From a virus (Duplodnaviria > Heunggongvirae > Uroviricota > Caudoviricetes), in IMG/VR virus record IMGVR_UViG_2700989507_000006: DNA of 64,000 bases; one strand, 5' to 3'. This document shows positions 4,167 through 58,010 of this stretch, piece by piece. Positions within the stretch are counted from its first letter, which is position 1. The number at the start of each line of letters is the position of its first letter. A model generated the notes under the pieces. That model made no database searches. It saw only the letters and a list, made by a program, of their open reading frames with translations, and was not told the origin of the DNA. Both the position numbers and the translations under genes were made by a program.

Positions 4167-4183
4167 AAATTTATTAGAGCAAA
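4167..4183. promoter_or_regulatory. C1 repressor operator (16/17 match to AAATTTATTAGAGCAAT)
   Basis: aaatttattagagcaaa upstream of the kilA start; matches the position of the P1 kilA-repL operator. Confidence 0.6.
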
Positions 4184-55438: not shown

Positions 55439-55458
55439 TACTGTTCATTTATACAGTA
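55439..55458. promoter_or_regulatory. LexA box (SOS operator)
   Basis: TACTGTtcatttatACAGTA matches CTGT-N8-ACAG; between divergent humD and the + strand gene. Confidence 0.7.
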
Positions 55459-55593: not shown

Positions 55594-56175
55594 ATGCCTA
55601 ATCGCATTCCTCTCGATCCTGTATTGCCCAAAAATTTTGACTGCACTCCTAACGAGAAACGCTCTAAAGCTCAGCTGGACGCCTGGTGGGACCATCCATA
55701 TGGGGTTACACAACCTGACGGGAAAATTGTAGTTTATTGTCTGAATGGTGGGGCGTGGGACCGTCCATCCGTGCTTTGTTTGGCAGATAACTATGATGAA
55801 GCCTGTGAACTTGCCGAAAGACAGCAGGCAAGCTGGGTAAAAACACGGTCTGAACCGACATTCATGTTTTCAAAAGAACCGCCATTTATACTGGCGAGGA
55901 TGCCGCAGCGACCGGATCATCAACAAGAAATTGTTGCTGAATTTTCCTCAAGGGATGAGATGAATCTCTTCTCATTAAAGCAGGAAGAAAGGGATCGCGT
56001 CGAAGTGTCTCCAACTCTCGACCACAACCGGATGAACCTGGCCCAACTCGCCTGGTACAGCAAAGAATTAGAGATTTCTATTGCCCGACTTGAAAACGAA
56101 AAAGCCGCTATCCAAGCCCAGCATGAAGTAGTTCTGAACCGGATTAGAGAAATGCAAAACGATAATAGAGGCTAA
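55594..56175 (+). CDS. hypothetical protein divergent from humD (possibly LexA-regulated)
   Basis: 193-aa ORF with RBS aaggaatt; C-terminal coiled-coil. Confidence 0.5.
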   Translation: MPNRIPLDPVLPKNFDCTPNEKRSKAQLDAWWDHPYGVTQPDGKIVVYCLNGGAWDRPSVLCLADNYDEACELAERQQASWVKTRSEPTFMFSKEPPFILARMPQRPDHQQEIVAEFSSRDEMNLFSLKQEERDRVEVSPTLDHNRMNLAQLAWYSKELEISIARLENEKAAIQAQHEVVLNRIREMQNDNRG

Positions 56176-56235
56176 ATCGAGGTAGAAAACACATTGTTTA
56201 AGGCCACTAATTGTGGCCTCAAAGGGGAGAGATGC

Positions 56236-56787
56236 TTATTGGCTATGGCTAAAAATCAAATGAGACACTTCATGTGGTTGTAGCTCGTCAAGATCCGGGG
56301 CCACAAAACCTTTTCCGAAAGACTTCACAAGTGATTCACCAGCCACATCATTGTCACCTATTACACGAAAGTCATACGGCAGCATCGCAAGTTGACGGCG
56401 TAATCCAGCGGAGAAAGTCGAACCTAACAGCGCCCACGAATTGCCGCCCGCGTTGTGTACAGCTGCGCTCTTAAAAATAGACTCAGTTATCCATATTGGG
56501 CCATCTTTTAAAGGAAGATAGGTTCCCCAAAGTAACTGTCTGCCATGTGATCGCGTGAAATACCGGGCCATCTTCGGATTGCTATGCTGCTTAGGAGCAC
56601 CTGGTCTATATGTCTGATACCCAGCCAACATCCCATCAAACCTGTATAGAGGGAATGTAACTACTCCTTCGCTTTCATCGATCCACTGTCTATATGGGTG
56701 TATATCATGGCGGTAGTTACGAGTTAGCAAATGAGCTTCCAGCTTTCCAAATTTTGTCATATTCCGTTCTTCCTGCATACTGGGCAT
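56236..56787 (-). CDS. small TOPRIM-domain protein
   Basis: IWITESIFKSAAV (conserved Glu) and VIGDNDVAGESL (DxD) resemble TOPRIM motifs; N-terminal start uncertain. Confidence 0.45.
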   Translation of the reverse strand: MPSMQEERNMTKFGKLEAHLLTRNYRHDIHPYRQWIDESEGVVTFPLYRFDGMLAGYQTYRPGAPKQHSNPKMARYFTRSHGRQLLWGTYLPLKDGPIWITESIFKSAAVHNAGGNSWALLGSTFSAGLRRQLAMLPYDFRVIGDNDVAGESLVKSFGKGFVAPDLDELQPHEVSHLIFSHSQ

Positions 56788-57062
56788 GTGTTCTCTGTGA
56801 AATATGGGAAACTATTATCCAGCTCATCTACCCACTGTTTATGGTCGAAGCAGAAAAATATCTCCCACGGCATTCCATATTCTTCCATCCATAGGCGGAT
56901 CTGCATTTCTATTGGAATCGGCGGTATTGCAGACACCATATCAACAGGATAACAGTTCAGACGACGTTCCAGTTCTTCTACTCTCTTCTGGAGATGAAAT
57001 ATCCGATCCAGATGCACACGCCGCTCCCGTGCCATTTTAAAATAAAGCTCGCCGGTCATCAT
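56757..57062 (-). CDS. small Cys-motif protein, paralogue of the next gene
   Basis: C-terminal motif WE.FFC.DH..W.DELD.SFPYF.E..CP.CR shared with 57062..57358. Confidence 0.4.
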   Translation of the reverse strand: MMTGELYFKMARERRVHLDRIFHLQKRVEELERRLNCYPVDMVSAIPPIPIEMQIRLWMEEYGMPWEIFFCFDHKQWVDELDNSFPYFTENTCPVCRKNGI

Positions 57063-57358
57063 TAACTCCTACATTCAGGGCAAGAGTTCCCTTCCGCAAA
57101 ATAGGGGAAACTGCTATCAAGCTCATCACACCATCTGCGATGGTCGTAGCACCAAAACGCCTCCCACGGTGCACGGAAATACTTCATCCACCAGGACACT
57201 CGATCAGGTATATCTGCTGGTGGCAGCTCTTCTGGCAATAATTTGCCTGATAATTCCCTTTCCGCCCGCGCCAGCATTCCTTTTAGACTCGCATTCTCTT
57301 TTTCAAGAATATCTATGCGCGCCTGTAACTCAGCTTTCGTTGGCATGGTCCGCCTCAT
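57062..57358 (-). CDS. small coiled-coil/Cys-motif protein, paralogue of 56757..57062
   Basis: Start taken at the internal Met (MRRTMPTKAEL); ORF track starts at 57427. Confidence 0.4.
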   Translation of the reverse strand: MRRTMPTKAELQARIDILEKENASLKGMLARAERELSGKLLPEELPPADIPDRVSWWMKYFRAPWEAFWCYDHRRWCDELDSSFPYFAEGNSCPECRS

Positions 57359-58010
57359 GTTTTTCAGCCACCAGCGGCAATAAAGCCCTGGCCATCTTAT
57401 GAACCAACAGAGCATCGATAATGCCAAGCGTATGCCCCGGCTTAATGTTTAATGCCGCCTCAAGGTGACACCTTTCCAGGTCACTTTTCTCGGCTTGTTT
57501 ATGATGATCTGGCGTAATAACGTCGCCCAAAACACGGCTAATTCTTTCTCGTAATTGCTGGGTGCCAGCACACTTGATCGCTGTATCGTGGAGACGGTTA
57601 ACCAGTTCGCGATAAACATGCGGCTTAATGCGGATACGTTCACCGGTGACGCCCTTTCCTGGCGCTGGCACCGAACTATCCGGAATATCCGGATAGTTGC
57701 CAGCCTCGTAAGCTACCCGCAGCCAGTGCATGAATGTTTCAGTGGACACACAACCACAGTCCACATCGATTTTTCCGCGTTGCTGTTCCAGCCACTGCTC
57801 AAAATTCAATCTACACGTATTACTTTCATGTTGCTCTTTTTGTCTCAAGGCCAGCACCTGTTGGGCCAGTTTCAGAACGATACCGGGTGACGCTAACCTC
57901 TCAAATTCCAATAAATAGTTTGCGTCAGGATGACAAGTAGCCTCGCCTGCAAAAAATACCAATTGCTGTAAGTATGCTGTCGTTAGAGTAGTCATTTCTT
58001 TTTGCGCCAT
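57330..58010 (-). CDS. hypothetical protein
   Basis: 226-aa ORF; boundaries uncertain. Confidence 0.4.
   Translation of the reverse strand: MAQKEMTTLTTAYLQQLVFFAGEATCHPDANYLLEFERLASPGIVLKLAQQVLALRQKEQHESNTCRLNFEQWLEQQRGKIDVDCGCVSTETFMHWLRVAYEAGNYPDIPDSSVPAPGKGVTGERIRIKPHVYRELVNRLHDTAIKCAGTQQLRERISRVLGDVITPDHHKQAEKSDLERCHLEAALNIKPGHTLGIIDALLVHKMARALLPLVAEKHEADHANES

Follow-up and report, generated by a model that had tools for sequence, protein, structure and literature searches.

Rad, short for retron anti-defense, is the name given to ORF75 of the T5-like phage SP15, which in the preprint describing it neutralised the retrons Ec67, Ec78, Ec83, Ec48 and Se72 (10.1101/2023.03.15.532788). The levels of the msr-msd ncRNA and of the msDNA were both lowered by Rad, the drop in ncRNA being found in the preprint only, and the mutations R13E, P33T, I88T, D135H and E156H weakened the protein (10.1101/2023.03.15.532788). 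The peer-reviewed version (Nat Commun 2024, PMC11555353) kept the escape from retron-Eco2 (Ec67) and retron-Eco7 (Ec78) via ORF75, and it is the preprint that extends the activity to Ec83, Ec48 and Se72. Anti-retron activity has been reported for the proteins of SP15, T5 and a Proteus phage (10.1101/2023.03.15.532788; PMC11555353), and the phages T5n and SP15m, which both lack an 8-kb region, are viable (PMC11555353). Another group observed that T5-ATCC, which has ORF75, fails to escape a different type I-A retron (PMC12475279), so the spectrum of Rad is limited. Very few phage factors besides Rad/ORF75 are reported to act against several retron types. Our literature searches on a mechanistic follow-up of Rad and on the interaction of P1 with retrons turned up neither a mechanism nor any P1-specific result.

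The Rad family comprises phage proteins of about 170 aa which consist of the DnaG-type catalytic core only, without the zinc finger or the helicase-binding part. Here we analysed a 64-kb stretch of viral DNA (the window) which carries a gene of this family.

Gene model and family assignment

The original prediction described a small, stand-alone TOPRIM-domain protein, and both the open reading frame and the two motifs on which it was based were recovered in the window (Table 1). The likelier start of the gene is the tenth codon of this reading frame, an ATG at position 56760, from which a protein of 174 aa is encoded. In the sequence ATGA, this start codon overlaps with the stop of the preceding gene; a purine-rich stretch lies ahead of it, and the alignments with homologues begin there too. 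The equivalent start is used by RefSeq in the pO111_2 gene WP_000159954.1 (99 % identical), labelled 'toprim domain-containing protein', so the bare TOPRIM call is already public annotation.

Table 1. Coordinates of the features at the Rad-like locus in the window.
Feature	Position	Strand	Remarks
LexA box CTGTTCATTTATACAG	55441..55456	+	between humD and lxr; outside the transcription unit of the TOPRIM gene
lxr (LexA-regulated function)	55594..56175	+	convergent with the Rad-like gene; downstream boundary of the variable slot
Terminator-like hairpin	56197..56223	-	11-bp stem, 13 nt past the stop codon, between lxr and the Rad-like gene
Flagged ORF	56787->56236	-	183 aa, longest ORF
Rad-like mini-primase CDS	56236..56760	-	174 aa from M10; based on ORF, RefSeq start, ATGA overlap and homologue alignment
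Third acidic cluster D156-L-D158-E159	56284..56295	-	E159 = Rad E156, mutated in the preprint
TOPRIM DxD motif VIGDNDVAGE (D136, D138)	56335..56364	-	D138 = Rad D135, whose mutation lowers anti-retron activity
TOPRIM Glu motif IWITESIFKS (E93)	56467..56496	-	K97 at the position of Asp in DnaG EGxxD
N-terminal subdomain of DnaG-type RNA-polymerase domain	56521..56691	-	residues ~24-80: FPL..G..GYQ.Y hairpin, NPK.ARYFTR, WG; HMMER alignment to DnaG 'FPI..G..GFGGR...PKYLNSP' and fold matches
PmgV paralogue	56757..57062	-	101 aa, phrog_3797, C-x2-H...C-x2-C; upstream, translationally coupled, P1-lineage-specific
pmgV homologue	57062..57427	-	upstream boundary of the variable slot

Pfam returned no match for the window protein even at E<=10, hence none above the gathering thresholds of PF13155, PF13362, PF13662 and PF01751, so that its assignment to TOPRIM is based on profiles and on structure; the threshold of Toprim_2 is passed by its more canonical relatives. 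The protein had no match in NCBIfam or PADLOC either, and a single-sequence phmmer search against PDB retrieved nothing. Informative were only PHROGs, the profile of the family and structure prediction. PHROGs placed the protein in phrog_849 'DNA primase' (2e-53), and none of the profile searches assigned it to a non-TOPRIM family, the outcome named beforehand as speaking against the call.

Fold and active site

The window protein contains all of the minimal RNA-polymerase domain of a DnaG-type primase and is thus more than a lone TOPRIM. Structure and fold searches covered the DnaG-type N-terminal subdomain together with the TOPRIM over 151-162 residues, so a TOPRIM is present as predicted, but it makes up only part of the protein. 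The family profile matched bacterial DnaG catalytic cores in PDB, namely 4e2k (E=1e-4) and also 1eqn, 1dd9 and 2au3, in an alignment which starts at the hairpin 'FPL..G..GYQ.Y' (corresponding to DnaG 'FPI..G..GFGGR') and extends through the DxD motif. The N-terminal half is specifically DnaG-like, and its residues G47, Y51, Y67 and G79 are invariant or nearly so among 143 sequences. No OLD, Gabija or PARIS structure was found among the top structural matches.

Among 11 homologues, no variation occurs at E93, D136 and D138. Across the family, the Glu is present in 142/142 ungapped sequences, the two Asp of the DxD motif in 130/143 and 129/143 members, and D156 of the third acidic cluster in 131/143. 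The motifs are thus under selection. The position of Lys97, which HMMER aligned to the Asp of DnaG 'EGxxD', is more variable, with Asp in 87/143 sequences (61 %) and Lys in 41/143, the window protein belonging to the Lys class. Lys is also found here in the T5 and Kagunavirus proteins and Arg in the Proteus protein; every tested Rad lineage that could be placed in the alignment thus falls, like the window protein, into the Lys/Arg class.

The window protein has zero cysteines and its domain starts at residue ~5; the absence of cysteines excludes a primase zinc finger. Its C-terminus lies about 15 residues past the TOPRIM fold, so there is no helicase-binding part. The predicted small size and stand-alone nature were therefore correct, as the protein is a single domain without any zinc-binding, helicase or ATPase domain.

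Relationship to Rad

The T5 counterpart of Rad, AAX12008, is annotated as 'DNA primase'. All five residues mutated in Rad fit this protein in a 172-aa numbering, which happened in 0/200,000 shuffles, and the T5 ORF read from an upstream ATG has exactly 189 aa. The phage vB_Sen_I1, whose Rad was tested, has a counterpart of the T5 gene at 98 % identity.

The window protein is a full-length homologue of the T5/SP15 Rad. BLASTP against T5 Rad gave 43 % identity over 167 of the 174 aa of the window protein (E=3e-33), and both proteins belong to PHROG 849 and to one HMM family. The residues R13, P33, I88, D135 and E156 of Rad correspond to R14, P37, I91, D138 and E159 of the window protein and are all identical. 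With its 174 aa, the window protein also has the size of Rad (a stand-alone primase/TOPRIM of ~170-190 aa). The Proteus lineage with the strongly active, tested Rad of 'Privateer' was represented by the Proteus T5-like phages PM135 and Stubb as proxies; their proteins share 39-43 % identity with T5 Rad as well as with the window protein, so the reported activity spans a comparable divergence. At 43 % identity, the target of the window protein could still differ from that of T5 Rad.

Locus in the P1-like phage-plasmid

The window represents a P1-like phage-plasmid, with phd-doc, humD, lxr and pmgV 95-99 % identical to P1-family phages and more than 500 plasmids. Between positions 4167 and 52804 we noticed 11 matches to the operator consensus of the P1 C1 repressor (0.22 expected by chance), which fits an intact immunity circuit of the P1 type; all of them are at least 3.4 kb away from the TOPRIM gene. 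No C1 operator or strong sigma-70 promoter was found near the Rad-like gene, and the timing of its expression was for this reason deduced from the operon structure. The 64-kb window contains no tRNA genes, unlike T5.

The gene had been placed in an SOS/early region. It does adjoin the SOS unit, but is not a member of it, because the LexA box belongs to the divergent humD/lxr; the gene is convergent with lxr, the hairpin stands between them, and the gene is the last of a long minus-strand accessory operon. The junctions of this operon, TAATG between pmgV and the paralogue and ATGA between the paralogue and the Rad-like gene, indicate that the three genes are translationally coupled. Further upstream, the minus strand carries a string of small accessory genes which is mosaic with Stx and lambdoid phages. 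Between positions 57330 and 63946 these encode, among others, a PmgT-like fragment, a membrane protein, and ASCH, DUF551, HNH and EaA-like proteins, and reference P1 covers only 38 % of the region. PADLOC gave no match on the Rad-like gene and its four neighbours.

The slot between lxr and pmgV differs between P1-like elements. In reference P1 it holds hot, which encodes a homologue of the Pol III theta subunit, and upfO/N/M, whereas the window and pO111_2 have the 101-aa PmgV paralogue and the Rad-like gene at this place. Comparison of the window (56176-57061) with P1 (L001, 3662-4581) and pO111_2 (L002) showed the slot to be polymorphic, with upf93.6/upf94.2 in P7. The lxr-pmgV slot thus behaves like a site of exchangeable accessory cassettes. 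In the window, the bordering lxr forms one ORF of 193 aa (55594-56175, plus strand), in contrast to two annotated CDS in pO111_2 (L002, 3096-3677), where it is probably disrupted. DNA of the Rad-like gene was detected in approximately 141 of the ~520 matching P1-like plasmids and is full length in 48 of them. In 93 of the 141 plasmids the match extends over under 80 % of the gene, and some protein clusters reach only 96-113 aa (P0006, P0008, P0010 and P0011). Both observations suggest that many P1-like plasmids hold decayed or truncated copies.

The two genes upstream of the Rad-like gene contain Cys motifs, and the original prediction raised the question whether these neighbours are required. 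They encode PmgV, labelled 'putative morphogenetic function' in P1, and its paralogue; the two proteins are 52 % identical over the C-terminal 54 aa and both belong to phrog_3797. They share the motif W..F.C.DH..W.DELD.SFPYF....CP.CR with a possible C-x2-H...C-x2-C metal site, and neither has a zinc-finger match in Pfam. We considered them as a zinc finger acting in trans or as a required partner. As a conserved partner they were rejected, given the lack of a Pfam match and the fact that they stand beside homologues of the Rad-like gene only in P1-like loci.

Family size, fusions and genomic contexts

The exhaustive profile search (E<=1e-3) resulted in 1337 cluster representatives, nearly all of which are stand-alone proteins of 155-190 aa. 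About 490 deposited phage-genome records encode a homologue, among them T5-like phages, Guernseyvirinae of 41-45 kb, jumbo phages of Erwinia, Dickeya and Klebsiella, Proteus T5-like phages and Vibrio phages. The homologues are usually labelled 'hypothetical' or 'DNA primase', and the latter label is apt structurally but probably misleading functionally for the Rad family.

Of the 21 longer members, 20 were scanned, and none of these has a zf-CHC2/primase zinc finger, a DnaB-binding domain or a helicase. The fusion partners in these 20 were PolyA_pol/CCA-adding heads with or without HD, cytidylyltransferase-like domains, Arr-type ADP-ribosyltransferase with or without GNAT, HAD, DUF3268 (a zinc finger) and, as a weak match below the threshold, ParB_N. 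Such fusions or overlaps are rare and were seen in the proteins P0113, P0066, P0106, P0121, P0049, P0071, P0092 and P0151 and at the locus L085 (2631-4465); two very long putative fusions of 994 and 1046 aa may represent a polyprotein or gene-calling read-through. The two CCA-enzyme fusions differ at the position equivalent to residue 97, P0066 being of the Asp class and P0113 of the Lys class.

The T5 homologue lies inside a tRNA cluster, and of 49 diverse metagenomic viral loci, 13-16 have the homologue within a same-strand tRNA array. Such embedding (L018-L020, L022, L028, L029, L041, L050, L057, L065 and L067-L069) is seen in several unrelated large-phage lineages beyond T5, on contigs from ~40 kb up, including T5-like ones of 104-122 kb and others of 172-182 kb and 287-307 kb. 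In Vibrio phages, the homologue overlaps the gene for tRNA nucleotidyltransferase. In Kagunavirus, it follows a SNF2/DEAD helicase gene, to which it is translationally coupled, in a Pol I module, and a separate helicase-primase of 746 aa is present. A conserved neighbour was sought in 65 diverse loci, but there was no fixed partner; neighbours included GNAT/MCD-like proteins, gp32 SSB, SNF2 helicase with Dam, ClpP and unknowns. The replication-module, tRNA-array and CCA-fusion contexts hint at other roles in the wider family.

Putative function

Because the window protein belongs to the same family as Rad, its gene is most likely a counter-defence gene and not a replication primase or an OLD-type nuclease. 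We consider it probable, with considerable room for doubt, that it is a Rad-family counter-defence gene on an exchangeable accessory cassette and that its product inactivates the ncRNA or msDNA of retrons. The protein would act after derepression of the P1-like phage. The groove of primases holds a hybrid of template DNA and RNA primer; by its fold, and in line with the preprint data on Rad, the protein may bind the msr-msd RNA or the msDNA with its TOPRIM metal centre and primase-like nucleic-acid groove. The bound molecule would then be inactivated, probably by cleavage, and the retron would be kept from sensing the infection and releasing its toxin. The exchange of the EGxxD Asp for Lys, which the tested Rad proteins have in common with the window protein, agrees with a turn away from processive primer synthesis.

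An alternative is a replication function, with the bare DnaG core making or extending RNA primers for lytic or plasmid replication in concert with the host replisome or with Ban, the helicase of P1, and possibly with a zinc module supplied in trans by the PmgV-like Cys/His proteins. In its entirety the fold matches a primase RNA-polymerase domain, and the Glu, the DxD and the third acidic cluster are kept; many databases label the family 'DNA primase', and the slot is otherwise occupied by hot, which as a Pol III theta homologue is another replisome accessory. The coupling to a SNF2/DEAD helicase gene in the Pol I module of Kagunavirus, the gp32 SSB upstream at one metagenomic locus and the C-x2-H...C-x2-C motif in the upstream genes point the same way. 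However, template-directed de novo priming by T7 gp4 and E. coli DnaG needs a zinc-binding and a helicase-interaction domain, and the window protein lacks both, as well as the EGxxD Asp. Kagunavirus has its dedicated helicase-primase besides, none of 20 extended members scanned carries a zf-CHC2 or helicase domain, no PmgV-like gene occurs at any of the non-P1 loci, and P1 has PmgV without a Rad-like gene. T5-like phages without the gene are viable (T5n, SP15m; PMC11555353); this argument is based on the published viability, as a separate replicative primase of T5 was not confirmed from annotation. We regard an auxiliary primase as unlikely. The tRNA arrays and CCA-enzyme fusions of the family would instead suit an RNA-processing or repair enzyme, e.g. 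one maturing or repairing phage or host tRNAs damaged by defence nucleases, of which the anti-retron effect is one manifestation. Against this, tRNA genes are absent from the window and from the Kagunavirus loci, the co-location may be incidental because the tRNA regions of these T5-like phages double as islands of anti-defence genes in general, and the CCA-enzyme fusions are split between the Asp and the Lys class. Such a role of the window protein appears quite improbable.

The original prediction also mentioned OLD-like and other nuclease-based conflict systems. An involvement in phage-host conflict is probably right, but on the side of the phage, as the characterised homologue is the anti-retron Rad/ORF75 of T5-like phages. 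TOPRIM nucleases are common as defence effectors and the gene lies near phd-doc in a mobile element, which could speak for a toxin-type nuclease of a defence or addiction system on the plasmid prophage. This reading is essentially excluded by the lack of an ATPase domain and of an ATPase neighbour, the blank PADLOC result for the gene and its four neighbours, the DnaG-like N-terminal half with no OLD, Gabija or PARIS structure among the top matches, and the origin of the family, which comes overwhelmingly from virulent phages (T5, Kagunavirus, jumbo phages). Returning to counter-defence, an extended version of it seems possible but doubtful to us. The Rad clade could be a DnaG core which was turned into an enzyme of RNA or RNA-DNA hybrids when it lost its zinc finger and helicase tether and when one metal-ligand Asp was replaced with Lys, a reversal of charge, and which destroys or blocks primer-template-like structures such as msr-msd/msDNA. 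P1-type phage-plasmids would then swap the cassette with hot as a determinant of host range, and the tRNA arrays and CCA fusions would point to a wider, RNA-centred set of counter-defence tools in which the effect on retrons happens to be the function recognised first.

With this locus, Rad homologues extend to the P1-like phage-plasmids, which are temperate, amenable to genetics and spread resistance genes between E. coli, Salmonella and Shigella. Only a minority of P1-like elements have the gene, which alternates with hot, and P1-like phages with the Rad-like allele should plate on retron-bearing hosts that restrict the hot-carrying ones. The stripped-down DnaG core with a specific active-site substitution, found in Rad and in the window protein, provides a concrete structural hypothesis, and the P1 system is a convenient test bed for the question of the Rad-family mechanism, which is itself testable.

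Comparison with known TOPRIM systems

The fold, composed of the N-terminal subdomain and TOPRIM, and the Glu/DxD metal ligands are shared with the primase domain of T7 gp4 (PDB 1nui), whose core is the closest in size, and with the DnaG cores (1dd9, 2au3, 5guj, 4e2k). Unlike these primases, the window protein has no Cys4 zinc-binding domain, no C-terminal helical subdomain and no helicase or helicase-binding domain, it carries Lys for the EGxxD Asp, and T5-like phages can do without the gene. The DnaG-type N-terminal subdomain is missing from RNase M5 and from the 'small TOPRIM domain protein' of Bacillus (PDB 6tg6, 2fcj/2i5r), and we detected no sequence relationship of the Rad family to them beyond the DxD region (E ~0.3). 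The layout of RNase M5, an N-terminal TOPRIM followed by an rRNA/uL18-binding domain, is also not that of the window protein. With the OLD family (P2 Old, GajA, PARIS AriB and the retron-Eco8 effector) the window protein has in common the TOPRIM metal centre and phage-host conflict. Those systems, however, act as effectors on the side of the host or prophage and have an ABC-ATPase as a domain or as a partner, whereas the window protein has neither this nor an OLD-type TOPRIM structure, its neighbours being PmgV-like proteins and Lxr.

Rad of T5 and SP15 is a stand-alone protein of the same size, with the Glu, DxD and acidic cluster kept and Lys at the EGxxD Asp position, and both genes are encoded among accessory genes. 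The differences concern the carrier, a temperate P1-like phage-plasmid as opposed to a virulent T5-like phage, and the surroundings. Unlike T5 Rad, the window gene occupies the hot slot of P1 and is coupled to a PmgV paralogue, and it lies in a variable accessory operon and not in a tRNA-rich or anti-defence region, which is a contextual and not a defining feature. The gene is thus the addition of the P1 lineage to Rad, an already known kind of system and not a new one.
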